64,000 nucleotides of DNA, taken from positions 260,315 through 324,314 of the forward strand of contig CAWCTC010000001.1 in the NCBI GenBank assembly GCA_963798465.1, written 5' to 3'. The notes below the pieces were generated by a model. It did not search any database. It was not told the origin of the DNA and saw only the letters and a list, made by a program, of their open reading frames with translations. The translations under genes and the position numbers were made by a program. Positions 2,055-16,160 of the stretch are shown in pieces. The DNA comes from an uncultured bacterium. GTDB taxonomy: Bacteria; Patescibacteriota; Minisyncoccia; Phycocordibacterales; GWA1-40-21. How positions within the stretch are numbered: the stretch's first letter is position 1; every line of letters starts with the position of its first letter.

Positions 2055-2572
2055 TTCCCCGATGCTCTGCATCGGTCCACATGCTATAGTTGGCTAATGC
2101 AACATATACGTAAGAAGCACAACGTTTCTCTAATCATTTACCACCTAGTTTGTCCATCGAAGTATAGAAGAGAAATTTTTTCTGAAGGGGTTTCAACCAC
2201 TCTCAAACAGACTTGTTTGGAATTGGGTAATAGATATGAAATCAATTTTCTAGAAATTGGTACAGATGATAACCATGTACACTTTCTAATACAGGCAATT
2301 CCAAACATGTCTGTGACTAGTATTGTAAAAATAATCAAAAGTATTACAGCAAAGCAAATATACAAATATCACCCCGAAGTAAAAAAATTTCTCTGGGGCG
2401 GAAACATTTGGACTGCGGGTTATTATGTAAATACGGTAGGACAATATGGAGATTTGAAAATGATACAGAACTATGTAAAAAAACAAGGATTATCAAACTA
2501 CAAACAATTACACATACAACTTCCATATTGTCCGCATGACGAATACCTCGTCAGCTCTGCTGCGAGGTAGTT
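2055..2572 (+). mobile_element. IS200/IS605-family insertion sequence (tnpA only)
   Basis: A Y1 transposase gene is bracketed by subterminal hairpins sharing a TCT loop. Left hairpin CCGATGC-TCT-GCATCGG (2059-2075); right hairpin ACCTCGTCAGC-TCT-GCTGCGAGGT (2545-2568, one bulge). No long terminal inverted repeats, as expected for this family. Confidence 0.75.
2097..2570 (+). CDS. tnpA: IS200/IS605-family Y1 (HUH) transposase TnpA
   Basis: 157 aa. HUH motif HVHFL and the catalytic-Tyr region WTAGYYVNTVG. Confidence 0.9.
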   Translation: MQHIRKKHNVSLIIYHLVCPSKYRREIFSEGVSTTLKQTCLELGNRYEINFLEIGTDDNHVHFLIQAIPNMSVTSIVKIIKSITAKQIYKYHPEVKKFLWGGNIWTAGYYVNTVGQYGDLKMIQNYVKKQGLSNYKQLHIQLPYCPHDEYLVSSAAR

Positions 2573-2645
2573 TATTTTAAAGAAACATGACAAAGAAAAA
2601 CCCGGAAGCAAAAACTTCTGGGTTTTTAATTTTCTCTGAGCTTTC

Positions 2646-2882
2646 CTATCTGCGCCAGTGCCTGTACTGTCCGTAATTTCTCACAGTATATCTGCAATTA
2701 TGAATATAATGCGGATAACTGTTGTAATAGTAATTTTCGGGCAAGTACACGGGCGCCTGTTCCTCGACAATCACACTATTTTCATTTTCATAAGCGCTGT
2801 CGGGGACAACGAGAAGAAAAGAACATCCTGTCGCCAAAAAGGCTAAGACAAACGCAAACAAGAGAAACATTATTTTTTTCAT
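2646..2882 (-). CDS. Small putative lipoprotein, unknown function
   Basis: 78 aa. Signal peptide with lipobox LATGC, Tyr/Asn-rich mature part. A hairpin at 2596-2626 follows the stop. Confidence 0.55.
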   Translation of the reverse strand: MKKIMFLLFAFVLAFLATGCSFLLVVPDSAYENENSVIVEEQAPVYLPENYYYNSYPHYIHNCRYTVRNYGQYRHWRR

Positions 2883-2972
2883 GTTTTTCCCTCCTTTTTT
2901 TGAACTTTGTATTTCTGAATATAAGAGTATAGGAAGGGGAAATGGTTGTCAATCTGAATATTAATACAATTT

Positions 2973-2999
2973 AAAAACCACCTAAAAAGGTGGTTTTTA
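2973..2999. terminator. Stem-loop AAAAACCACC-N6-GGTGGTTTTT
   Basis: 10-nt inverted repeat with A/T runs in a non-coding stretch. May mark the left edge of the accessory region. Confidence 0.45.
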
Positions 3000-3262
3000 A
3001 AATGTGGACATAAGGCGTAAAACACTAAGTCAGCTAAAAGACTACCTCTTAAGGTTTTGGAACTACTATAATTCGAGTATAAATCTACAAAAAGCCCTTG
3101 AAAATGGCTGATATTTTGATCTAGAAAGGTACACAAATAGGGTATTTAATGGTTATTATTGGCTATAAAATGCTAAATTTGACATAAAAATGTCTAAAAA
3201 TAGACTTGACATATAATTTCACATAGACTATACTCTAATTATAACAATAATTTGTTAAAATT

Positions 3263-4498
3263 ATGATAACAAAAACAAGAGTTGGTAATTATTATTCTAT
3301 AGGTAAGGAGATAGAGTTAGAGTTTTTAAAAGGTGGTTCAAAAAAAGAGGACGGGTATTTTCTCTACAAAAATAATGAGAAAGTATCATTAATAAATGGT
3401 TTTTTTGGAGCAAATGCAAGTGGAAAAACTAATTTACTGAGATCAATGGTTGGTCTTATTAGGATAATGTATACGGCATATTCTCCACAGGGTATTTATC
3501 CTATGCAGGGTGTTGTTGGAGAAGTTAAGTTGTGCGAGCCAAATGCACATAAAGATTTTAAAGATAAGCCTACAAAATTGGGAGCCGATTTTTTGTTTGG
3601 TAATAATTACTATACTTATAATTTGGAAATTAAAAATGGGAACGATATAGCAAAAGAAGAGCTTTATCTCACCACTCTTAATGTGAAATCTGCAAAGCCA
3701 AAGATGGTTTTTAACCGAGTAAATTCAGTTATTACTTTTGGCCCTGAGTATAAAGAATATGAAACATATTCGATGAACATAACAATTCAAAAACACCAGA
3801 CATTTATTTCCCACCTGATTAATTTGGGAGCGAAGTTGGTTGGCGATTTCATTAACAATAGAAACTCGTTCTTTCTAAAGAATGATGGGACTGATTCAAT
3901 GCTACCGCCACAAATCGCTGTTTTAACTAGAGCTTTTGCTTTGAATTCTCTTGATAAAGAGAAAAAAGATGAATTCTTAAAAACAACCAAAGATATTATG
4001 AGCTGTTTTGATGATTCTATTGATGATTTGAAAGTTAATACTGAAAATAATAGTATATCTATTAAAGTTGCACATAAAAACTTCTTAAAGACTATTGATA
4101 TACAGCAAGAGTCAGCAGGAACAAGAGAATTATTTTGTTATATCTATGACATATTAAGTACTATTAAAAAAGGAGGTGTTGTAGTATACGATGAAATAAA
4201 TAGATATTATCATCCAGATGTAGAAGTTGCTCTAATTTCAATTTTCAAAAATCCAGAATTTAACACAAAAAATGCACAGTTATTTTTTGCTTCACATAAC
4301 CATGAGACTTTTGATTTGTTGGAGTTAGATCAGGCGTATATTATAGAAAAAATAGACTCATGTTCTTCCGTATATAAATTATCAGAAATTGAAAATTTAA
4401 AGAAAAGAGATAGTTTAAAGAAAAAATACAGGCTTGGTATGCTTGGAGGGGTTCCTGATGCAACGACTCTCGATTATAAACTTAAGCAACTCCTATAA
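3263..4498 (+). CDS. AAA_21/ABC-like ATPase, AbiLi/RloA-type (defence-associated)
   Basis: 411 aa. Walker A GANASGKT, Walker B-like VVVYDEI, FASHNHE near the C-terminus. The stop overlaps the next start (TAATG). Confidence 0.75.
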   Translation: MITKTRVGNYYSIGKEIELEFLKGGSKKEDGYFLYKNNEKVSLINGFFGANASGKTNLLRSMVGLIRIMYTAYSPQGIYPMQGVVGEVKLCEPNAHKDFKDKPTKLGADFLFGNNYYTYNLEIKNGNDIAKEELYLTTLNVKSAKPKMVFNRVNSVITFGPEYKEYETYSMNITIQKHQTFISHLINLGAKLVGDFINNRNSFFLKNDGTDSMLPPQIAVLTRAFALNSLDKEKKDEFLKTTKDIMSCFDDSIDDLKVNTENNSISIKVAHKNFLKTIDIQQESAGTRELFCYIYDILSTIKKGGVVVYDEINRYYHPDVEVALISIFKNPEFNTKNAQLFFASHNHETFDLLELDQAYIIEKIDSCSSVYKLSEIENLKKRDSLKKKYRLGMLGGVPDATTLDYKLKQLL

Positions 4499-5034
4499 TG
4501 AGTCGATTGGCAATACATAAACAAAGAGACACAGTAATCACTTTCTGTGAGGGAGAAGCGGAACTACAACTTTTTGCTTTTTTGAAAAGCCAATACTCAA
4601 ATAAAAAAGTAACTTTTAAAGCAATTAATCTTAAGGGTGTTGCCGATCTAATTTCCTTTAAGAGGAAATATAATAAACAGATGAAGAGTCAGGGTCTTAA
4701 ACCCAAGAAAGATTTTGCTAATGTTAGGTATTTATTTATCATTGATAATGATTTGATAGATTCAGACAAAATAATAGCCTTTTTGAAGACATCAGGACAT
4801 CTAGTTCAGGAGCTTGAACCAAATGCGGAAGGTTTGATGTTAGGTCTAGCAGGACAAAGTCAGGGAAATAACCTTAAAACAGATGTATTTAGAAAAAAGT
4901 GTAAAGAAAATTTCAAAAATCAATTTAATTGCGATGCGCATCAATTAAAAGAATCGAAATTTAAAGAGATCTTTAATAGCGAAACTATTTTAAAGAATAA
5001 ATTACCTGTTCTACACAGTTTATTCAAAGCATGA
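4498..5034 (+). CDS. RloB/AbiLii-like (Toprim-type) protein, partner of the ATPase
   Basis: 178 aa. N-terminal VITFCEGEAELQLF resembles the RloB ...CEGExTE..YF motif, and LFIIDNDLID supplies a DxD-type acidic motif. Translationally coupled to the upstream ATPase. Confidence 0.6.
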   Translation: MSRLAIHKQRDTVITFCEGEAELQLFAFLKSQYSNKKVTFKAINLKGVADLISFKRKYNKQMKSQGLKPKKDFANVRYLFIIDNDLIDSDKIIAFLKTSGHLVQELEPNAEGLMLGLAGQSQGNNLKTDVFRKKCKENFKNQFNCDAHQLKESKFKEIFNSETILKNKLPVLHSLFKA

Positions 5035-5105
5035 TTTGTGCTCATCGTTATCATTATTTCAGGTTACTAAAAATGCCATTGATTTAGTAAAAGTAAACGA
5101 ACTTA

Positions 5106-5786
5106 ATGAAGTACCATCATAAAAAAATGAATATGATATGTTTTGACAAGGCTGAATTAAGAGCTATTTTTGAAGCACCTTCCAGGAAACAGTTGAGAGA
5201 AACTGTATTGAAAGACGGACATATGCCGATAGAGCTTCTTCTTGATGAAACAAAAATGCGAGAAATTGCTGAAAAGATTAAAATTATTAATGATAAAGAG
5301 GAAAATGAAATTTTCTGTGCATTGTACGTGTTTCCCGAGTTTTACAAAAAGGAAAGCAAAATTTGTTTTCTATTGAAAGATGGTATCGATCCCCGAAAAG
5401 AGCAAATTGATTCTCTGAAAAAATTAAAGATTTCTTTAAAAGAAAATGATTTGACCGATTTCTTGCTCTGGCATGATGATGGCGTTAGGGCTTATCAATT
5501 AAAATCATATAGAGGAAAAACTGAGATTAACGACTTTTTGAAATTTCTTGAAGAAAAATTATTGCACTACAGCAATGATCTTGGAGAGACTAATCTATTG
5601 ATTAATTTACAATCTGAAGGTGATCTGACGGGTGATTTTTTTCAAGATGTTCATGAAAAATTAAAAAAACTTAAAGTAAGAGGTACGGGTCACGTTATTA
5701 TTTCATATAACGAAGAAAATAAGTTTGATGTAATGGTTACCGTATATCCAATCCTTGGAACAACTAGAATTCCACAAAAATCATGA
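5106..5786 (+). CDS. Hypothetical protein (226 aa), coupled to the downstream HEPN-motif protein
   Basis: Long ORF with no motif I can assign. Its stop overlaps the next start (ATGA at 5783-5786). An 8-bp hairpin TTACTAAA..TTTAGTAA lies upstream at 5064-5090. Confidence 0.6.
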   Translation: MKYHHKKMNMICFDKAELRAIFEAPSRKQLRETVLKDGHMPIELLLDETKMREIAEKIKIINDKEENEIFCALYVFPEFYKKESKICFLLKDGIDPRKEQIDSLKKLKISLKENDLTDFLLWHDDGVRAYQLKSYRGKTEINDFLKFLEEKLLHYSNDLGETNLLINLQSEGDLTGDFFQDVHEKLKKLKVRGTGHVIISYNEENKFDVMVTVYPILGTTRIPQKS

Positions 5787-7573
5787 TTAGAAAAGAATTA
5801 AAAGATTATCTTGATCAGCTAGAAACTGAAATTAAACCAATTGAGGAATTCAATCTTGGAGAAAAGATTTCAGAAATTCTAGATACAAAAAATGTAAAGA
5901 TTACTGACAAGGAGGAATTAGCCGAATATATTGCTTTTGAGTTTTTGGCTGATTATTCAAATAAAGAAAGTGGTTGGGGTACTTATTATGGCCCTATGAT
6001 GGTTTGGAAAACGAAAGAGAGCGGTTTCATTGAATTTCCGAGTATTAAACAGGTTGATAAAGAAACTTTAGTTTATTGGGAAAAAAGAGCAGGTGAATGC
6101 AAACACCCAATTTTAATATATCGCTATGCTGACTTAGTTTTTGATTTTGGACCAAAAGTTCTTAATAAAGGGATTGATTTTAAGATAGCGCAAAAAGTTA
6201 TAGATTCTGGAATAGAAGTTTGTACCGCTGGTTTAGATGATGGTTTAGGGTGTAAATCAAAACTCGAACGCTGTTTGCGTTTAGCGGTTCAAATTAATGA
6301 TAGTGTAAGAATAGAAAAACTAAAGACAGTTATTATTGAAACTGAGATTAAATATGCGGAAGATGATAAACCTGGTCTCTGGGGTTATGCATTTCAATGG
6401 TTAGTTTTTGATAAGACTGGAAAGATAATTTTATCTGATATTGAAAAAACAAAATTATTAAATGATCTCGAGGATCGTCTAAAGAGATTGATGGCAATGG
6501 ACACCATAGATTCTTGGCGTGTTGAGTGTGCGGTCAAATTACTTGCACCATATTACTCAATGAATCACGACGAAATTAATCTTAAAAGAGTCCTAGATGA
6601 CCTTGAATCTTCATATAGAAAAGATACATATGCTAATTCTGATGGAATGTTAATTAGTAATTACCTTGAGAAATTTATTGATATATATCTGGATTATTCT
6701 GCTTTCGAGTTTGCAAAAAAGGCACGTGAAAGGATAGTAAACGAATTGAGTAATCTGGGTGAACGTGGTAAGTTTGCGATGCAAGAAATTTCTACAGAAG
6801 TAACAATTAAGAATGAAGATGTTGATAAATTTATCAAAACTATATTTGGTGAAAATGATTCTAGTGTGTTAGAAAAAGTTATAGCAAGAATTGTAACTCA
6901 GTTTATTCCTCGTAAAAAAGCGGTAGAGACACAACTTAATAATTTAGCTAAGGATCATCCACTTACGTATTTAGTTAGTCATACTTTGTCTTCTGAAGAT
7001 GGCTACCCGATTACTAAATTTGGTTCAATTGATGAAGATTATGACAAACATTTGTTAGAGAATTTTTCCCATAACCTTCATTATCAAACCATGTTTTTAA
7101 AGGTTGTATCGGATAAGTTTTCGAAGACATATACACCAGAACAAATCACTGAATATATTCTTCTGTCCCCAGTTTTTAGAATTGAAGACAAAGAATATAT
7201 TTTAAAAATATTTAAATCACTTTCAGAAAAAGATTATTTAACTGTGTGTTGTTTAAGTATCCCACTAATTGAAGATTCGGTTAGAAATCTTTACCGTATT
7301 AATAATCAGACATATATTAAAGCAAATAATTTTGATGGCTATGATGTTATGAATCTAGATACACTTTTAGGAAGAGGTCTTATAAGAAATATTTTTCAGA
7401 CAATGGGTGATGATGTAGAATATTATTTGAAAGTATTATTAACTGAGAGAATCGGTTGGAATTTAAGAAACAATTTTGCTCACGGAATTAATAAAAAATT
7501 ATTTATGGATGAATCTGTAGCAGATCGTCTGGTCCATGTATTATTTTGTCTTTCTATGATTAGAAAAAAATAA
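5783..7573 (+). CDS. Large hypothetical protein with C-terminal Rx4H HEPN-type motif (DUF4209-like layout)
   Basis: 596 aa. The C-terminal ..ERIGWNLRNNFAHGINKK..ADRLVHVLFCL contains R-N-N-F-A-H (Rx4H). The rest is unassignable by eye. Confidence 0.6.
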   Translation: MIRKELKDYLDQLETEIKPIEEFNLGEKISEILDTKNVKITDKEELAEYIAFEFLADYSNKESGWGTYYGPMMVWKTKESGFIEFPSIKQVDKETLVYWEKRAGECKHPILIYRYADLVFDFGPKVLNKGIDFKIAQKVIDSGIEVCTAGLDDGLGCKSKLERCLRLAVQINDSVRIEKLKTVIIETEIKYAEDDKPGLWGYAFQWLVFDKTGKIILSDIEKTKLLNDLEDRLKRLMAMDTIDSWRVECAVKLLAPYYSMNHDEINLKRVLDDLESSYRKDTYANSDGMLISNYLEKFIDIYLDYSAFEFAKKARERIVNELSNLGERGKFAMQEISTEVTIKNEDVDKFIKTIFGENDSSVLEKVIARIVTQFIPRKKAVETQLNNLAKDHPLTYLVSHTLSSEDGYPITKFGSIDEDYDKHLLENFSHNLHYQTMFLKVVSDKFSKTYTPEQITEYILLSPVFRIEDKEYILKIFKSLSEKDYLTVCCLSIPLIEDSVRNLYRINNQTYIKANNFDGYDVMNLDTLLGRGLIRNIFQTMGDDVEYYLKVLLTERIGWNLRNNFAHGINKKLFMDESVADRLVHVLFCLSMIRKK

Positions 7574-7616
7574 TCATAGTACACATAGGGTTGGCTAAAT
7601 CAGAAGAAGTTAATTT

Positions 7617-7812
7617 TTTACATTATATTTTTATATGATATAATACTGGTACAACTGAATAAGAAAGTAATCTAAACTAGTAAGTAATTACTGGCATGAT
7701 GAAAAGAAAGTCGTATAAGGCATAAAAAACCCATCATGGGGTCGCCTTATACGCTATATCGGGAAACTGGTATAAGTGGCTTCGGCCACTACCCGTGATG
7801 GGCTTTTTGTTT
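7617..7812 (+). promoter_or_regulatory. Promoter plus structured leader or small RNA with alternative pairings and a terminator-like end
   Basis: TTTACA (7617-7622), 16-nt spacer, then TGaTATAAT (7636-7644). Downstream, CGTATAAGGC (7712-7721) and GTATAAG (7771-7777) can each pair with GCCTTATACG (7744-7753). There is a GTGGC-TTCG-GCCAC hairpin (7778-7791). CCCATCATGGG (7730-7740) can pair with CCCGTGATGGG (7793-7803), which is followed by CTTTTTGTTT. Confidence 0.4.
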
Positions 7813-7858
7813 ATAAAAACTCATCATAGGTAATTATCAGTTTTAATAAACAAAAAGT

Positions 7859-8101
7859 ATGAAAGATTCTATTTGTACAACGTGTGGTTATGTAGGAAAG
7901 CCAATCAAGCTTGTTAAGGGGAGTTTTGCTATCGAGTTGTTTCTTTGGCTCTGTTTCTTTGTTCCAGGCTTTATTTACTCTATTTGGAGATTAACAAGCA
8001 AGATAGATGTTTGCCCTAAGTGTAAAAATCCCAACATGATCCCCATTGACTCTCCTGTGGGACAAAAGCTTGTTGGAGAACACCAACATCCCAAGGCTTA
8101 A
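7859..8101 (+). CDS. LITAF-like zinc-ribbon membrane protein
   Basis: 80 aa. CTTC knuckle, a hydrophobic helix (AIELFLWLCFFVPGFIYSIW), then a CPKC knuckle. This is the split zinc ribbon with embedded membrane segment typical of LITAF/SIMPLE-like domains. Confidence 0.55.
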   Translation: MKDSICTTCGYVGKPIKLVKGSFAIELFLWLCFFVPGFIYSIWRLTSKIDVCPKCKNPNMIPIDSPVGQKLVGEHQHPKA

Positions 8102-8145
8102 TAGGGTACTTGCATAAATTATACATATATGTATAATTCTCTATT

Positions 8146-8976
8146 ATGAATAATTTAGATAATTTAATAGACCTGATAGGTGAAAACGATATCGTTATTA
8201 AGGGTGTTTCTAGTGAATACCAAAAGCCAGAATTTGCTGACAGAATAAAATCTTTTTTTCGTGAAAAAAGATTCACCGTTAAAGATACAGGTGTCTCATA
8301 CCGAATGATAAATCACTGGAAAGATGTGGGGATCATTCCCGACTCTTGTTTTGATGATAAGAATCAAGATTGGGCAAAGTTCAACCTTGTGGAGCTATTG
8401 TGGCTAAAGGTAGCCAATGAATTAAGATCTTTTGGTTTACCTTTAGAAAAAATAAAGAGAGTTAAAAAAGATATTTTAATTTGGAATGAGAAACAACAAA
8501 CTTACCTAGATTTTGAGTACAGGATATACCTTTCTATAACTACTAAATCTGACCTGTTTTTATTTATCGAATCTGATGGATCTACTCAGATTCAGAGTCT
8601 TAATTTTTTCATTTTTATGAAAAATATTTTAAATAGTTTTGGGTGGAATTTTCCGAAGATGATACTGATTTCTATGAAAGATTTAGTTAAAGACTATGTC
8701 TTTATGGTTGAACGACCAGATGATATTTTATCTATCTCAAAACCAGAGATGGAGTTATTAAACAAGATAAGACTTGGAACAGGTAATAAAATTACTGTTC
8801 ATAAAAAGGATAGAAAAATATCTGATATTCTTACGTCTGATTTTATGACAGAGAATATCGATATATCAAAAGTCATGAAAAATTTAAAGGAGGAAGGTGG
8901 TAATACTGAGGTAGTTCTAAAATTAAATAATGGTAATCCAGAGTTTTTAGAGGTAAAGAGGAAAAAAAGAGTGTAG
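8146..8976 (+). CDS. Hypothetical protein with N-terminal MerR/excisionase-like HTH
   Basis: 276 aa. RFTVKDTGVSYRMINHWKDVGII resembles the MerR/HTH_17 helix-turn-helix. The remainder is unknown. Confidence 0.4.
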   Translation: MNNLDNLIDLIGENDIVIKGVSSEYQKPEFADRIKSFFREKRFTVKDTGVSYRMINHWKDVGIIPDSCFDDKNQDWAKFNLVELLWLKVANELRSFGLPLEKIKRVKKDILIWNEKQQTYLDFEYRIYLSITTKSDLFLFIESDGSTQIQSLNFFIFMKNILNSFGWNFPKMILISMKDLVKDYVFMVERPDDILSISKPEMELLNKIRLGTGNKITVHKKDRKISDILTSDFMTENIDISKVMKNLKEEGGNTEVVLKLNNGNPEFLEVKRKKRV

Positions 8977-9073
8977 GTGTATCTTGCCATCAACGATACG
9001 GTTGGGGTAATTTAAAAAAAAGAGATGTTTGCTATCAATAAAACAATTGGAGCTTAGTCGCAAAAACATATGA

Positions 9074-9244
9074 GTGAAAATAACAAAAGAAGAATATCGA
9101 AAGATATCGGGAGACTATTTTTCCCCAGACTCTCTAGTAGAGAGAAAAATCGAGTATCTAACGGCTTTTTGTAAAAATATCATAAAGGCTGAAATAGAGA
9201 GGTATCGTGAGTCTTTGAAGCAAAATAAGGCTGTTAAGGGCTAA
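9074..9244 (+). CDS. Possible small ORF (56 aa, GTG start) upstream of the recombinase
   Basis: Open frame MKITKEEYRKISGDYF...KQNKAVKG, below the ORF-track cutoff. No homology recognised, so only weakly supported. Confidence 0.2.
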   Translation: MKITKEEYRKISGDYFSPDSLVERKIEYLTAFCKNIIKAEIERYRESLKQNKAVKG

Positions 9245-9270
9245 AATTAGCCCTAAAAGGAGTTATTACA

Positions 9271-9360
9271 ACAATACGCGCGCGTGGGAAGGGAGTTTTG
9301 CGATAAATACGCGCGGGTGAGGGAGTTTCGCCACCAATACACGCGGGCGCGCTAGACTAA
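9271..9360 (+). repeat. Three GC-rich direct repeats (AATACGCGCGGGTG-GGGAGTTT-GC) immediately 5' of the recombinase gene
   Basis: Copies start at about 9273, 9306 and 9346, the last truncated. They are strikingly GC-rich compared with their surroundings. Copy 1 contains the palindrome ACGCGCGCGT. Confidence 0.6.
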
Positions 9361-10971
9361 GTGTTCAATCTTGATAACTTTATGATTAAGACAAAAATTA
9401 AACAGAATAATCCAAATAACCCCTATGAAGAGAGGACGGGTCTTGTTTATGTCCGTGTATCAAGTAAACGACAGGAGACCCAAGGAACTGGTTTACAGAG
9501 CCAAGAGGGGCGTTGTATTAAGGAACTAGAGTTAATGAAAGTTCCATATAAAGAAACCTTTCCCGATAGTTATTCAGGCGGAGGTGATTTTATGCTAAGA
9601 CCAGCGATGAGAGATATGATCGCGTATATAGATGCACACCCATACGAAAAATTCATCGTAGTATTTGATGATATTTCACGCTTTGCCCGTGATGTCGTTT
9701 ATCACATTAAACTTAGAGAGGTGTTTAGATCTCGTGATGTAATGTTAAAGTGTTTGAATTATAGCTTTGATGAAAGCGATGAAGGTTGGTATTCAGAGTT
9801 AATTCTTTCAGGAAAGGCGGAGTTAGACAGAAGACAGAATCGTAGACAAGTCATACAAAAACAAAAATCACGCCTTGAATTAGGATACTGGTCATTTGCG
9901 TCTAGAAAGCCTTATAAGATGACTAAAGACCCATTGCATGGCAATATACTCAAATTACAATATCCAGAGGCAGGTTGGCTCAAGGAAGCAATGGAAGGAT
10001 TTGCGGATGGTAGATTTATTAGAAAAATTGATGCTTGCAAATTTCTTCTCAAGAAAGGCTATTGGAAAAAACAATCTGTAGAAAAATATATAGATAATTT
10101 TTCTCTTTTATGTAAAGACGCCTTATTTGCTGGATACATCGAATATCCTGAATGGGAAGTAGAGAGGCGAAAAGGACATCATGAAGCCCTTATATCACTT
10201 GAAACATATAATCTTATTCAAAAACGTTTAAGGAATGAGGGTCTAGGAAAAAGAATTCGTGTAGATATATCGAAAGATTTTCCACTTAGGGGTTTATCTC
10301 TTTGTGCATATTGTAGTAAGCCCCTCACTGGTGCTTGGTCAAAGGGCAGGAAACAAAAACATCCATATTATTTTTGTCAGAATAAAATTTGCTTATACAA
10401 AGGAAAAGCTATTCGTAAAAAAGATATAGAAGAGAGTTTTGATAATTTACTTAAAAAACAGATTCTTAAAGGAAAAGCAGAGGTAGTCCTGAAAAGAGTT
10501 TTTGATTCTGAATGGATGGAAGAAATATCTAACTTAGAACTCTCCCAACATACCCAAGTAAAAAATAAAAAAGATCTTGAAGACCAACTTAGTGAATTGG
10601 TAAAGTTGTCTACGCGGGCCAAAGATCAATCAATTCGAAATGCTTATGAAAGGGAGATGAGGGATGTATCAGATAAGATCATTCAAATTGAGGATGATTT
10701 TCTACCTAATTTTGATACTAAGGTTCCTTATCGAACGGCTCTTGATAAAGCTACAGGTTTATTGAAAAGTCCTTATAAAGTATGGAAGGATCTTGATGTG
10801 ATAGAGCAACATAGTCTATTCTATTTTATTTTTGACACAAAAATACCCTATGACATAAAAGAAGGCTATCGAACCGATAGTATTCCAACTGCCATAAGGC
10901 TTTTTGAGGAATTTGCGACTGCAAATTCCTGTGATGTGGAGATGGGCGGAATCGAACCGCCGTGCAAATGA
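9361..10971 (+). CDS. Large serine recombinase (resolvase/invertase N-domain + recombinase + zinc-ribbon domains)
   Basis: 536 aa. GLVYVRVSSKRQ catalytic-Ser motif, Cys cluster CAYCSKPLTG...YYFCQNKIC, C-terminal coiled-coil-like region. GTG start (alternative ATG at 9382). The last codons are antisense to the tmRNA 3' end. Confidence 0.9.
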   Translation: MFNLDNFMIKTKIKQNNPNNPYEERTGLVYVRVSSKRQETQGTGLQSQEGRCIKELELMKVPYKETFPDSYSGGGDFMLRPAMRDMIAYIDAHPYEKFIVVFDDISRFARDVVYHIKLREVFRSRDVMLKCLNYSFDESDEGWYSELILSGKAELDRRQNRRQVIQKQKSRLELGYWSFASRKPYKMTKDPLHGNILKLQYPEAGWLKEAMEGFADGRFIRKIDACKFLLKKGYWKKQSVEKYIDNFSLLCKDALFAGYIEYPEWEVERRKGHHEALISLETYNLIQKRLRNEGLGKRIRVDISKDFPLRGLSLCAYCSKPLTGAWSKGRKQKHPYYFCQNKICLYKGKAIRKKDIEESFDNLLKKQILKGKAEVVLKRVFDSEWMEEISNLELSQHTQVKNKKDLEDQLSELVKLSTRAKDQSIRNAYEREMRDVSDKIIQIEDDFLPNFDTKVPYRTALDKATGLLKSPYKVWKDLDVIEQHSLFYFIFDTKIPYDIKEGYRTDSIPTAIRLFEEFATANSCDVEMGGIEPPCK

Positions 10972-11341
10972 TTGTTCCAGATATTTCTACAAAGTTTAGT
11001 TGATTTTATTTTGTCTTGCGACAAATTTAAGATTATGAACTTTAAAAAAACAAAATATTCATAATCCGATTCTCTTATTTCATTTTGCGCCGAGAAATCG
11101 CAAAATATATTCTGAAAATATTACACTTCAGACCACCGCTCAGAATCAGTGGGTGAAATGTCGCTTAGGCTAAAGCGTAAGCGAAAGTAGGAGTTGACCT
11201 CCAAAAATGGAGAAACAATACTCGCTACTTTTTGTGAAATGTTATTAGCATTTACATTTTCCTTGATAGATTTAGGAGTTCACAAGGTTGCTCTACTTTG
11301 CATATAAGAAACGGGACCAATTGTCTAGGCCGATCATCCCC
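10937..11341 (-). ncRNA. ssrA: tmRNA (SsrA)
   Basis: 5' end GGGGATGATCGGCCTAGAC. 3' end GGCGGTTCGATTCCGCCCATCTCCA. The acceptor pairs GGGGATG with CATCTCC, including a G3-U wobble (Ala identity). An internal reading frame ..ACT TTC GCT TAC GCT TTA GCC TAA (T-F-A-Y-A-L-A-stop, 11165-11188) resembles canonical tags. smpB lies next door. CCA is not encoded. Confidence 0.85.
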
Positions 11342-11346
11342 GTTGT

Positions 11347-11402
11347 CAGTATACTGTATTCAGTATTCTGTATACAGTATAACAATGCATAGTATACAGT
11401 AT
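11347..11402. repeat. Heptamer tract CAGTATA/CTGTATT x5 plus an extra AGTATACAGTAT, just 5' of ssrA
   Basis: cagtata ctgtatt cagtatt ctgtata cagtata runs contiguously over 11347-11381. On the minus strand a TATACT hexamer lies 7 nt upstream of the tmRNA 5' G. Confidence 0.5.
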
Positions 11403-11413
11403 TTATTATATAA

Positions 11414-11773
11414 TTATTTATCTATTGCAGATTTTATTATTCCAGATATTAATTTTGAACTTTGCTCAATCATTAAATCAAGTTCTTTGTAATCATTATC
11501 TGTTATATATCCTAAGTCTCTTGCTGTAATAAGCTGGCTCTGAAGTTCTGAAAGGGAACCTTTGGATATTGTATAAAACTGCACCTTATCTTTTTTAGTA
11601 TTTCTACTAAAACCTTCCGCTATATTGGAAGTAATTGATACAGATGATCTTCTAATTTGATCTGCTAGCGCAAATTTTTCTTCGTTCGGTAGTTTCTTTA
11701 ATATCTTGTAGACATTTAAAACTAACTCGTGAGATTTTTGCCAAGCGATTAAATTTGTAAAATTTTGTATCAT
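11414..11773 (-). CDS. Four-helix-bundle protein (23S rRNA intervening-sequence protein / Avd-like family)
   Basis: 119 aa. ..LIAWQKSHELVLNVYK...FALADQIRRSSVSITSNIAEGFSR...KGSLSELQSQL matches this family's conserved pattern. Confidence 0.85.
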   Translation of the reverse strand: MIQNFTNLIAWQKSHELVLNVYKILKKLPNEEKFALADQIRRSSVSITSNIAEGFSRNTKKDKVQFYTISKGSLSELQSQLITARDLGYITDNDYKELDLMIEQSSKLISGIIKSAIDK

Positions 11774-11797
11774 TTTTTATATACTAAATACTGTATA

Positions 11798-12247
11798 CTA
11801 TATATTTGATTTCAATGTTCTATCTATTTCTCTATCAGATTCGCGTTTCTTGATTGATTCGCGTTTGTCTGTTTTCTTTTTTCCTCTTGCAAGACCAAGT
11901 TCTACCTTAATCTTGTGGCCCATATTATACACTGAAAGTGCAACTATTGTCAAATTTTGTTTTTCTTTTCCAGCGAGATATTCAAGTTCTTTTTTTGTAA
12001 GCAAAAGCTTGCGATTTCTTCTTTCGTCATAATCTTTTGGTGTATTTTTCGGCTGAAGAGAAACTATTGCCGAGCCGATAAGAAATGCTTCGCCTCCGCG
12101 TATGACAGCATAGGCGCCATCCAAAGTCATTCTTCCTGCTCGAACAGCTTTGACTTCAATGCCGAGCAGCTGAATTCCTGCCGTGATTTTTTCAAGGATT
12201 TCATAATTGAAATATGCTTTTCTATTTTCCGCGAATTTGGCTGACAT
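11798..12247 (-). CDS. smpB: SsrA-binding protein SmpB
   Basis: 149 aa. NRKAYFNYEILEK..AGIQLLGIEVKA.R.G and the basic C-terminal tail are typical SmpB. Confidence 0.95.
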   Translation of the reverse strand: MSAKFAENRKAYFNYEILEKITAGIQLLGIEVKAVRAGRMTLDGAYAVIRGGEAFLIGSAIVSLQPKNTPKDYDERRNRKLLLTKKELEYLAGKEKQNLTIVALSVYNMGHKIKVELGLARGKKKTDKRESIKKRESDREIDRTLKSNI

Positions 12248-12304: not shown

Positions 12305-14276
12305 ATGGATATATTAAACAATAAAAAACCACCAAATAAGAAGTCATCGAATAATAAGAACAAAAACCAGAATGCAAAAGGCAATCCTCTGAATCTTTTC
12401 ACGAAGATAGCAAATGCGATCCTGATAATTCTTTTCATTTCAATTTTGTATTCCGTTATTTTTACCGGAGGAAGCAAGCCGCAGCAGATTTCAATTTCAC
12501 AGCTTGCCAATGATGTTTCATCCGGACTTGTAAAAAGCATCGATGTGCAAGGAGATAATCTTACAATCACTTACAATGCAACCGGAACGGCGACAAGCAC
12601 CGCAAGTACGACAGTAACCGCAGCACCAATAACAAAAACATCTAAAAAAGAAGAAGGTGTTGCTTTGAGCAGAAACTTTACAATTACAAAGTTTCCGCAA
12701 GACGCGCTTGACAAGGTCAATATAACTATTGAAAGCGATACCGGTTTTAGCTATTGGTTTATGAATCTTGCGCCATTTTTGATTCCGCTGATTTTTATCG
12801 GAATATTTATCTGGATAATCATGAGACAGATGAAAGGAGCAGGAGTGCAAGCGATGTCTTTTGGACAATCAAAAGCCAGAATAATTTTGCCGACAGATAA
12901 AAAACAAAGAGTGACTTTTGCCGATGTTGCCGGCGCAAAAGAAGCAAAAGAAGAGTTGACGGAAGTCGTGGACTTTTTGAAAAATCCGAAAAAGTTTCTT
13001 GATATCGGCGCAAAAATTCCGAAAGGAATACTTTTGCTTATGGGCGCGCCGGGAACAGGAAAAACTTTGCTCGCAAGAGCTGTCGCCGGGGAAGCCGGAG
13101 TCGCATTTTTCTCAATTTCCGGTTCTGAATTCGTGGAAATGTTTGTCGGAGTCGGAGCAAGCCGAGTCCGAGATTTATTCAAGATGGCAAAAAATACTGC
13201 GCCGGCAATTATTTTTATTGATGAAATAGATGCTGTCGGAAGAGTGCGCGGCGGTGGAATGGGCGGAGGAAATGACGAAAGAGAACAGACTTTGAACCAG
13301 ATTCTTGTCGAGATGGACGGCTTCGAGCCGAATGAAAAAGTTATTGTCATGGCCGCAACAAACAGACCAGATGTTCTTGATCCTGCACTTTTGAGACCGG
13401 GAAGATTTGATAGAAGAGTTGTTATAGATTTGCCGGACAGAGACGACAGAGAAGCGATTTTGAAAGTACATTCAAAAGAAAAACCATTTGCGGAAGATGT
13501 AAATTTGAGAACTATTGCCGAGAGAACGCCAGGATTTTCCGGAGCAGATTTATATTCACTCATGAACGAAGGCGCGATTCTTGCAGCTCGAGAAGGAAGA
13601 CAAAAAGTTTCTCAGTTTGATCTTGATTCGCTCAATTGAAAAAGTTATGATGGGGCCTGAAAGAAAAAGTCATATCCTTTCAAAAAAAGAAAAAGAAATT
13701 ACTGCATATCACGAAGCGGGACACGCGCTTGTTTCTTCAGTTCTTCCATTCGCCGATCCAGTTCATAAGATTTCAATTATTGCTCGCGGACGAGCCGGCG
13801 GATACACTTTGCATTTGCCTTTTGAAGACAAAAGATTGCAATCAAAGAAAGAATTTATGGATGATATTGCAGTGTCGCTTGGCGGATATGTTACGGAGAA
13901 AATGGTTTTCGGCGATATCACAACCGGTCCTTCAAATGATTTGCAAGTTTCAACGGCTCTTGCGCGAGATATGGTTACAAAATACGGAATGTCGGAAAAA
14001 TTGGGACCGGTGGCGCTTGAAGGCGAAGGCGGAAGAGCGATGTTCGGCAACGGAGTGAATGACAAAGAATATTCGGATAAAATAAATGCGGAAATTGATG
14101 CAGAAGTTTCGGCAATAATGAATGGCAATATGAAAAGAGCGGAAAAAATAATCACGGATCATAGAAAAGCTCTTGATGCGATTGCAAAAAGATTGATTGA
14201 AACGGAAACGATTGAAAGGGAAGAGTTTGAAAAGATTCTTTTGGCAAATGGAATTAATGCCGAAGAAAAAAGATGA
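12305..14276 (+). pseudogene. ftsH: ATP-dependent zinc metalloprotease FtsH, split by an apparent 1-nt insertion (possibly a sequencing artefact)
   Basis: ORF 12305-13639 carries the TM segments and the AAA module ([30 protein letters not shown]). ORF 13581-14276 carries the HEAGHA zinc site. The frames join in GATCTTGATTCG (13619-13630). Removing one base gives ..KVSQFDL(D/I)[11 protein letters not shown].., which is colinear with FtsH. Confidence 0.93.
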
Positions 14277-16078: not shown

Positions 16079-16086
16079 TATCGATG

Positions 16087-16160
16087 TACGCCCGCCTAGA
16101 TTCGAACTAGGGACCCCGAAGGTATAAGCTTCGTGCTCTAACCAGCTGAGCTACGGGCGT
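16087..16160 (-). tRNA. tRNA-Ile (anticodon UAU)
   Basis: The reverse complement folds as ACGCCCG-TA-GCTC-AGCTGGTTA-GAGC-A-CGAAG-CTTATAC-CTTCG-GGGTC-CCTAG-TTCGAAT-CTAGG-CGGGCGT-A. The anticodon loop C-T-TAT-A-C gives UAU. CCA is not encoded. Confidence 0.8.

Follow-up and report, generated by a model that had tools for sequence, protein, structure and literature searches.

In the genome of an uncultured bacterium of the Patescibacteria, the 3' end of the transfer-messenger RNA (tmRNA) gene ssrA is adjoined by a block of non-housekeeping genes, and the questions raised by this locus are whether these genes form a mobile island, which enzyme placed them there and where the island ends. The DNA analyzed (hereafter the window) is a stretch of 64,000 nucleotides (NCBI GenBank assembly GCA_963798465.1, contig CAWCTC010000001.1, positions 260,315 to 324,314 of the forward strand). 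A preliminary description of the window had proposed a mobile island at the ssrA 3' end bounded by a large serine recombinase (LSR), based on a run of genes between about 3.2 and 10.97 kb located on one strand and enclosed by core genes. This gene arrangement was confirmed: the listing of open reading frames (ORFs) and the Pfam and PADLOC scans gave eight ORFs at 3263-10971, all on the + strand and none of them housekeeping, with rplT-rpmI-infC, PAP2, the TnpA gene of an IS200 element and a gene for a 78-amino-acid (aa) protein on the left and ssrA, a gene for a 23S rRNA intervening-sequence protein (IVP) of the four-helix-bundle type, smpB and ftsH on the right. Positions 3002-10940 most probably (we estimate about 0.9) constitute an integrative island that was placed by its own LSR in the last nucleotides of the tmRNA gene and that belongs to one family of elements in which the attachment site attP lies inside the LSR gene. 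The features on which this interpretation is based are the following.

3002-3008, + strand: attL identity core ATGTGGA, left island border (blastn against the relative L083, sequence checked)
10934-10940, + strand: attR identity core ATGTGGA, right island border (blastn against L083, sequence checked)
10934-11341, - strand: tmRNA gene (ssrA), integration target (Rfam RF00023, 110.4 bits, model positions 1-374)
2970-3001, - strand: native intrinsic terminator of the tmRNA gene (14-pair hairpin, then a T run)
9382-10971, + strand: LSR, integrated form, 529 aa (Pfam Resolvase 4.2e-13 and Zn_ribbon_recom 8.2e-7, both above cut-off)
3007-3111, + strand: displaced LSR 3' end, 34 codons plus stop (DIRRKTLSQLKDYLLRFWNYYNSSINLQKALENG, then the stop codon), in the LSR frame only in the excised attP form

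Contigs of relatives were retrieved by exact-sequence look-up of the 78-aa protein of the left flank, and three states of the site were seen. In L083, L085, L088, and L089 the site is empty, with the gene order ftsH-smpB-tmRNA-78aa-PAP2-infC-rpmI-rplT and nothing inserted. In L084 and L086 the same gap is filled by an island of about 8.4 kb (island B) with a 519-aa LSR, only 40% identical to that of the window, and a different cargo that includes HigB, Peptidase_M78, Beta_protein and a P4 cII-like domain. L087 represents the window's own island in an independent assembly. The gene order is thus not conserved in all relatives, and the occurrence of an empty site as well as of an alternative island at the same position substantiates the proposal of a mobile island bounded by an LSR.

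The comparison with an empty site also defined both borders. Window positions 2576-3008 (99.8% identity) and 10934-11341, that is ssrA itself (93.9% identical to the empty-site gene), align by blastn to neighbouring parts of L083, with an overlap of 7 bp between the two alignments. The conspecific empty site reads ...GGTGGTTTTTAAAATGTGGAGATGGGCGGAATCG..., which corresponds to the left flank followed by the right flank with a single copy of the core, within the surrounding sequence ...AGGTGGTTTTTAAAATGTGGAGATGGGCGGAATCGAACC... The island is 7,932 bp long (window 3002-10940) and is bounded by the 7-bp repeat ATGTGGA. The junctions of island B share GTGGAGATGG, which overlaps the core of the window island in GTGGA, and therefore the crossover must lie within GTGGA. 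The preliminary description had found no long direct repeat of the tmRNA 3' end and had considered the left border unresolved. The first observation was reproduced (a 25-nt query with up to 3 mismatches gave no match) and is explained by the shortness of the identity core (7 bp in this island, with a range of 4-17 bp over 38 related islands); the border itself is now mapped at 3002-3008, inside the range of 2571-3262 that had been searched for the repeat.

In the empty-site relatives the intrinsic terminator directly follows the tmRNA 3' end (...TCCACATTTTAAAAACCACCTTTTTAGGTGGTTTTT); in the window it is split from ssrA by the island. The mature tmRNA sequence is left unchanged by the insertion, and only the 3' trailer and the terminator are displaced.

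The tmRNA 3' end now has as its neighbour an inverted repeat (GGAATTTGC-GACT-GCAAATTCC, 10908-10929), which lies within the 3' end of the LSR gene at 5 nt from the crossover core; seen from the tmRNA strand, it is some 8 nt beyond that RNA's 3' end. The evidence for a hairpin at this position is weak (74.7% of positions paired vs 69.6% in shuffles and about 50% when slid), limited to the closer subfamily and entangled with a conserved protein motif. It might be a substitute for the displaced hairpin of the tmRNA trailer or a part of attP. A terminator-like palindrome of the minus strand, at 10880-10866, was considered as a replacement for the displaced tmRNA terminator but appears not to be conserved in the flanking sequences of relatives.

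An alternative view of the locus is that of a fixed, vertically inherited region beside ssrA with a domesticated or inactive recombinase and no mobile island. The modest difference in GC content and the failure to find a circular form would fit such a region. It is contradicted by relatives whose flanks are 92-99.8% identical to those of the window and which have an exactly empty or a differently filled site, and by 38 related islands with mapped ends in which unrelated cargo lies between conserved ends; this view is hardly credible.

The enzyme that is held responsible for the insertion shows the features of an LSR. In addition to the two domains listed above, a Pfam Recombinase domain was detected just under the cut-off (1.3e-3) and a PHROG integrase was matched at 6.4e-45. 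The annotated start is the ATG at 9382, and a GTG at 9361 is also possible. At its other end the ORF extends 38 nt into the tmRNA gene, and the complement of the acceptor and T arm of tmRNA supplies its final 10 residues, EMGGIEPPCK. All of 30 homologues compared have the R-V-S-S motif unchanged. When compared by sequence with phage integrases, only the catalytic domain is detectable in the homologue P0019 (TP901-1 catalytic domain, 3.9e-9). The AlphaFold model of this protein (mean predicted local distance difference test score, pLDDT, 79.6) contains long helices at 365-411 and 415-433 and matches the full-length serine integrase 9dxh (5.4e-13), Bxb1 (9iu2), the DNA-bound C-terminal domain of the LI integrase (4kis) and 6dnw. 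The best named NCBIfam models are XisF (7e-19) and CcrB (4.5e-14), both far under their cut-offs (68 vs 375 and 52 vs 900 bits, respectively).

Homologues of the LSR are numerous, 949 being retrieved at E <= 1e-10; the details given here rest on the best 120 of these, which are 50-71% identical over the full length and among which the few with an organism name are Patescibacteria. Almost all end in ..DVEMxGIEPxC.. or ..DVDPxGxEP.., the complement of a tRNA-like 3' end. A genome scan with one genome per species gave 80 LSR loci, nearly all of them titled as Patescibacteria lineages. According to ARAGORN, the LSR 3' end overlaps tmRNA in about 30 of these loci and tRNA-Ala (ggc, cgc, tgc) in about 25, and more rarely tRNA-Leu(cag) (3 loci) or tRNA-Ile(tat) (1 locus). 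At nearly all junctions the host gene begins with GTGGA(G/C) and the LSR frame reads GAT-GTG-GA.; across the family nearly all junctions contain GTGG, mostly as GTGGA. GTGGA is the complement of the 3'-terminal UCCAC common to tmRNA and tRNA-Ala, which in our reading links the targets through an alanine-type acceptor end. By pairing matches to a hidden Markov model (HMM) of the LSR tail, described below, with tRNA/tmRNA junctions, both ends were mapped in the 38 islands mentioned above, which measure 3,276-10,568 bp and have identity cores that are most often 7 bp long.

The match to a PHROG integrase raises the possibility that the island is a decayed prophage or phage satellite and its LSR a leftover phage integrase, as do the P4 cII-like domain and M78/HTH (helix-turn-helix) pair of island B and the occurrence beside other LSRs of LOOT, a structured RNA found within the island (see below). 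No capsid, terminase, portal, tail or replication gene was found here or among the commonest cargo of the 37 islands scanned, all elements are only 3.3-10.6 kb long, and in 2.9 million viral contigs no close relative of the LSR was present, the best being only 32% identical as compared with hundreds of homologues of at least 50% identity in cellular and metagenome data. A phage origin of this kind is very unlikely.

The most distinctive trait of the family concerns the position of attP. Immediately to the right of the left core lie codons whose translation matches the C-terminal ends of those homologues (P0019, P0053, P0105, P0120) that are in the attP or tandem state (..K.LN.LKDYL.RFW.YY.SS..LQKALE..), the consensus of the conserved tail peptide being ..LKxYLSRFWxYYQSSPxLQKAL... 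In the contig of P0019 (L001) the LSR continues straight into this peptide and the cargo follows. For the window element the reconstructed attP junction is ..CCTGTGATGTGGACATAAGGCG.. (as a short junction ..GCAAATTCCTGTGATGTGGACATAAGGCGTAAAACAC..) and its attB counterpart is ..TTTAAAATGTGGAGATGGGCGG.. (short form of the empty attB ..GGTGGTTTTTAAAATGTGGAGATGGGCGG..). Joined in this way, the excised form of the enzyme would have 519 + 34 = 553 residues as compared with 529 in the integrated form. Taken together, the sequences show that attP lies inside the LSR gene and that integration moves the tail codons to the opposite end of the island. In place of the helical 34-residue peptide, the integrated enzyme ends in a short run of residues for which the tRNA-like gene provides the codons. 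Because of this exchange, the free and the integrated element may produce enzymes that differ in activity or directionality.

Three loci (L008, L024, L027) were observed to contain tandem arrays, with two islands head to tail at one tmRNA gene. In these the upstream LSR reads into the left end of the neighbour island, which encodes the same tail peptide, and the internal copy could thus be complete although it is integrated.

Conservation of the tail was evaluated with the HMM, which matched window 3007-3111 at 5.4e-20 and detected the peptide in 42 loci (E <= 1e-7); in every case it is encoded on the same strand as the LSR and precedes that gene by 1.7-9 kb. In the alignment F-W is invariant and Y and L are near-invariant. 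The nucleotide entropy is 0.90, 0.78, and 1.26 at codon positions 1, 2, and 3, respectively; third positions are the most variable, as expected for a tail under coding selection. In the AlphaFold model of P0019 a disordered linker (514-523) is placed where the crossover is encoded and is followed by helices at 523-541 and 543-551 (pLDDT 82-86).

It may be argued that the tail is conserved only as DNA, as the tail-side arm of attP (P'), and that the LSR has its C-terminus upstream of the crossover. The conserved P' box AAAACATTGAACCGC falls on the first eight or so codons (..KTLNR..), and the authors who described the DsiB islands of Dehalococcoides doubted that the divergent C-termini of those recombinases are functional (PMC3146451). 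The present tails differ from a DNA-level constraint in several respects, since F, W, Y, and L are invariant while third positions vary (for example AGG vs CGT for Arg), in all 42 loci the frame runs on without interruption as far as a stop codon at a similar position, and two confident helices are predicted. Each half of a known LSR attP site spans roughly 25 bp, and conservation of the tail extends about 100 nt from the crossover, beyond such a half-site. Conservation as DNA only is rather unlikely, and the tail is better regarded as part of the protein encoded by the excised element.

The geometry of the attachment sites was compared for the right arms only. In the 38 islands the P' consensus is GTGGACAta.cg.GtAAaAcATtGAACCGcCT and that of the tRNA-side arm (B') is GTGGAGaTGgggGGAATCGAACCcccG. 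A [TC]GAA[CT] box is found at offset 18 from GTGG in B' (33/38) and at offset 23 in P' (26/38), that is, shifted outward by 5 bp in P' relative to B'. In the LI/A118 integrase the zinc-ribbon motif lies 5 bp further out in attP than in attB, a spacing typical of LSRs. As the P' arm has the same box 5 bp further out, we infer that the zinc-ribbon domain of the LSR reads the T-arm box (A)TCGAACC. The enzyme would then recognize the universal T-arm box together with an alanine-type acceptor end, which would explain tmRNA and tRNA-Ala as alternative targets.

Inside the island a structured RNA of the Rfam family LOOT was detected, preceded by a promoter-like site.

7669-7790, + strand: LOOT RNA (Rfam RF03000; 80.1 bits vs a gathering threshold of 46.4, model positions 1-121)
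7617-7644, + strand: strong promoter-like site preceding LOOT (TTTACA-16-TATAAT, extended -10 motif TG, 11/12)

A LOOT covariance model was built from the window and L001 copies and then rebuilt. LOOT occurs in island B as well and is not found in the empty-site loci. Of 73 assessable loci, 49 have a copy that precedes the LSR start by 381-2,381 nt; its orientation is opposite to that of the LSR in 37 of them and the same in 12. In keeping with the four covarying hairpins of the family, in an alignment of 55 copies 96.4% of the cells are paired and 34 of 35 pairs show double changes, many of them G-U, the alignment being fitted to the model, which favours structure. To avoid the bias of a sample chosen by its LSR, metagenome contigs were scanned with a LOOT sequence pattern; 80 loci were returned and all were true LOOTs (60-112 bits). 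Only one of these adjoins a close relative of the window LSR; in a further 26 an LSR of distant similarity (22-28% identity to the queries) lies no more than 4 kb away, as a rule in divergent orientation at about -187 nt. Among 148 nearest neighbours of LOOT the commonest Pfam domains are Resolvase, Recombinase and Zn_ribbon_recom, with methylases and nucleases next in frequency. LOOT often accompanies serine-integrase elements in these bacteria but is not obligatory, being neither required by this family nor confined to it.

The distant LSRs form a second family (for example in L128, L136, L163, L168, L185; L135, L189, L206) that is usually divergent from LOOT at about 190 nt, and some of its members abut the 3' ends of tRNA-Ser, tRNA-Glu or tRNA-Ala. 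In these bacteria, the 3' ends of tRNA genes may be general targets of LSR elements. A role of LOOT as a guide RNA for the att sites was considered and rejected, the longest match to the junction of its own element being 7.13 nt vs 6.99 nt for mismatched pairs. Among the papers searched, none reports this Patescibacteria family or connects LOOT with recombinases, and the article in which LOOT was first presented says nothing of it in its main text. LOOT is a well-supported structured RNA and is not known to have an assigned organism or function.

With low confidence, LOOT may be regarded as a regulatory RNA tied to the recombinase operon. Its position inside the island, constrained to 0.4-2.4 kb upstream of that operon, its occurrence beside the second LSR family as well and the prevalence of LSR domains among the neighbours in the LOOT-first sample all argue for such a tie. 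Conversely, LOOT may be a passenger or cargo small RNA, or a host RNA gene, that is not recombination machinery; its orientation varies, it is missing from minimal islands, no segment is complementary to the att junction and about half of the independent loci with enough flank have no serine recombinase within 3-4 kb. This second possibility falls somewhat short of an even chance.

A more extended model would combine all of these elements: integration as a molecular switch in which the tail-complete enzyme is produced only from the circle, possibly acting with a 56-aa protein encoded next to the LSR, LOOT as a dedicated regulatory RNA and a portable rule for attB. In this model the integrated, tail-swapped enzyme would differ in activity or directionality, possibly in conjunction with the co-transcribed 56-aa protein. 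That all parts hold together is tentative and rather doubtful.

A number of observations weigh against the interpretation presented here. A search of metagenome contigs for the excised-circle junction GATGTGGACATAAGGCGTAAAAC gave 0 matches, and the protein collection contained no attP-form protein 100% identical to the window LSR. About one in three islands lacks LOOT, L023 and L033, the two smallest, among them, and about half of the LOOT-first loci with enough flank show no serine recombinase. The first eight or so tail codons overlap the P' arm, and their conservation may be partly a constraint at the DNA level. The compositional contrast between island and host is small: GC content is 32.3% in the island and 30.6% in its cargo half vs 36.9% in the window. 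A shift in composition, for which the preliminary description had proposed to look, is therefore present and only modest. Finally, the full function of ssrA in this genome is uncertain, given a shift in the frame of its tag (see below).

The remaining genes of the island can be divided into a module that recurs near the LSR and a cargo.

3206-3234, + strand: promoter-like site ahead of the cargo operon (TTGACA-17-TATACT, 11/12, consensus match only)
3263-4498, + strand: AbiLi-like AAA ATPase, cargo (PADLOC AbiLi 8.6e-57; Pfam AAA_21 9.6e-18)
4498-5034, + strand: 178-aa partner of the ATPase, cargo (start and stop codons overlapping with the ATPase; seen only in this element)
5106-5786, + strand: 226-aa protein, cargo (shares 4 bases with the start of the following gene)
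5783-7573, + strand: DUF4209 protein, candidate defence gene (PADLOC PDC-S39 6.7e-26; Pfam DUF4209 3.8e-10)
7859-8101, + strand: 80-aa zinc-ribbon membrane protein (two CxxC pairs, one hydrophobic segment)
8146-8976, + strand: MerR-type HTH protein of 276 aa, core module (Pfam MerR_1 9e-6)
9074-9244, + strand: conserved 56-aa protein, core module (tblastn homologues in 50 loci)
9256-9349, + strand: three tandem copies of a GC-rich repeat of about 31 nt (repeat family D1, AAGGGAGTTT..ATACGCGCGGGTG)

The module comprises LOOT, the MerR-type HTH protein, the 56-aa protein and the LSR. In 30 or more loci, tblastn placed a homologue of the MerR-like protein immediately before the LSR gene. The homologues of the 56-aa protein (..EEYRKILNDxxSSDEQIKKRLxYLEAFCRNII..) usually abut the LSR start; in the window the two genes are separated by the repeats at 9256-9349, a spacer that most relatives do not have. 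Pfam, PHROGs and NCBIfam gave no family match for the 56-aa protein. Known directionality factors of LSRs (SPbeta, TP901-1, A118) are small proteins of about 60 aa, which makes this protein the obvious candidate for a recombination directionality factor.

The cargo of the window island is replaceable and consists of two candidate anti-phage systems. The four cargo proteins were found in this element only (tblastn), and ORF clustering in 37 mapped islands gave the same division into a recurring core and a variable cargo. The PDC-S39 models match the DUF4209 protein over nearly its full length (6.7e-26 and 1.6e-20), its role in defence being putative. The 178-aa partner of the ATPase had no match to AbiLii or any other family and the 226-aa protein no family match in Pfam, PADLOC, PHROGs and NCBIfam. 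The 80-aa protein, which gave only sub-threshold Pfam zinc-ribbon matches (E 0.013-0.96), has a homologue in island B (L084, L086). In the family as a whole 138 cargo proteins were scanned with Pfam and PADLOC, and type I and II methylases, restriction endonucleases, AbiLi/AAA_21 and HATPase_c_3 proteins, Peptidase_M78 with HTH, SocA/Panacea, SAVED and Trypsin_2 were detected; the cargo of the family is therefore mainly of the defence and toxin-antitoxin type.

Other insertions and irregularities were observed in the flanks.

2051-2575: IS200 element, TnpA at 2097-2570 (PF01797, 1.9e-33)
11342-11809: IVP cassette, ORF 11414-11773 on the - strand (PF05635, 6.3e-40), between the ssrA 5' end and smpB
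12305-14276: ftsH, broken into two overlapping ORFs
16086-16160: tRNA-Ile (anticodon TAT)

The IS200 element noted near the left side of the island in the preliminary description is indeed present. It is missing by blastn from every related contig, empty-site and island-B carriers alike, and is an independent insertion 433 bp outside the island. The IVP cassette, flanked by TACAGTATA-like repeated motifs, occupies the expected location of the tmRNA promoter, where relatives have only 80 bp (blastn), and is a separate insertion beside ssrA that is not found in relatives. The tmRNA gene itself carries a 1-nt insertion relative to the empty-site relatives (tag AKNISSKVASIVSPFMAATPTFAYALA, then stop) that shifts the tag frame (about 11150-11250). 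When ARAGORN was run on the window it did not call the tmRNA at 10934-11341, probably because of this shift. Relatives have an intact ftsH gene of 658 aa; the split ftsH and the tag shift may be assembly indels or real decay. The tRNA-Ile gene, a few kb from ssrA, is a conserved neighbour in many relatives.

Patescibacteria have tiny genomes with few recognized mobile elements, and the family described here would represent small serine-integrase elements by which defence genes are moved to the termini of tmRNA and tRNA-Ala genes. It also supplies att sites and an enzyme family suited to direct testing, with a natural experiment, the same integrase with and without a C-terminal peptide, that bears on the directionality of serine integrases, and gives LOOT a genomic context in LSR-bearing integrative elements of these bacteria. 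Direct repeats of 4-17 bp evade island finders that are based on repeats, and the tail peptide together with the GTGGA junction provides simple markers for such elements. If true, tRNA-like genes would be addressed by a rule, T-arm box plus alanine-type acceptor, that is both compact and portable.

The closest known counterparts are the ssrA islands of Dehalococcoides, whose LSR, DsiB, has a 3' end that always overlaps the att site (McMurdie et al., 2011; PMC3146451). The preliminary description had regarded a serine recombinase as the less usual agent at such sites; the agent is indeed an LSR here, and DsiB is a precedent for it. Both systems are small integrative islands at the 3' end of a single-copy tmRNA gene with an adjacent LSR described as CcrB-like (about 540 aa in Dehalococcoides), tandem arrays, varying cargo and an RNA-like element. 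The authors speculated that the integrase is complete only in the circular form and considered the overlapping C-termini divergent, with doubtful function (PMC3146451), whereas a conserved peptide is found here. The direct repeat is 20 bp in Dehalococcoides and 7 bp in the window (4-17 bp in the family). The six-gene module of Dehalococcoides consists of DsiB, the small serine recombinase DsiA, RecF-like, ParB and Mom proteins and a tRNA-Gly-like element; the module described here consists of LOOT, the MerR-like and 56-aa proteins and the LSR, and no second Resolvase-domain gene, ParB or Mom was detected in the window island with Pfam and NCBIfam. A RecF-like gene and a tRNA-Gly-like element are likewise absent here, and LOOT is not part of the Dehalococcoides module. 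The present hosts are Patescibacteria and tRNA-Ala is an alternative target.

SCCmec elements with CcrB/CcrC and elements with XisF resemble the island as small cargo cassettes without transfer genes, none of which was found in the island, and supplied the best-scoring named NCBIfam models. Unlike SCCmec, the island has no CcrA-like partner, the target is not rlmH and the scores are under the cut-offs. With phage serine integrases (Listeria A118/LI, Bxb1 and SPbeta-type; PDB 4KIS, 6DNW, 9IU2, 9DXH) the LSR shares the order of catalytic, recombinase and zinc-ribbon domains with a coiled coil, the short identity between attP and attB and the outer box 5 bp further out in attP. It differs from them in the target, which is the end of a tRNA-like gene and not a protein-coding gene, in the location of attP inside the ORF and in the extra conserved C-terminal peptide. 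Integrase genes that span attP are reportedly found in the Myxococcus phage Mx8 (intP/intX) and in Sulfolobus SSV1, and the mycobacteriophages BPs and Brujita are said to have integration-dependent immunity, the proteins of the free and integrated forms differing in C-terminus and in activity or stability. Mx8 and SSV1 use tyrosine integrases and in BPs and Brujita the protein is a repressor; here it is an LSR, which acquires its new tail from a tRNA-like gene. The tyrosine-integrase islands identified by Islander and TIGER (PMC4383910; PMC7192596) use the same class of targets and leave the target gene intact; unlike these, the present island encodes no protein with a Phage_integrase domain, has no long displaced tRNA fragment and places the crossover at the extreme 3' end. 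As an island of a serine integrase at ssrA the element is thus of a known type, and the family described here is a variant distinguished by its targeting of the 3' ends of tRNA-Ala and tmRNA genes, a conserved C-terminal peptide that is split off by integration and the association with LOOT.

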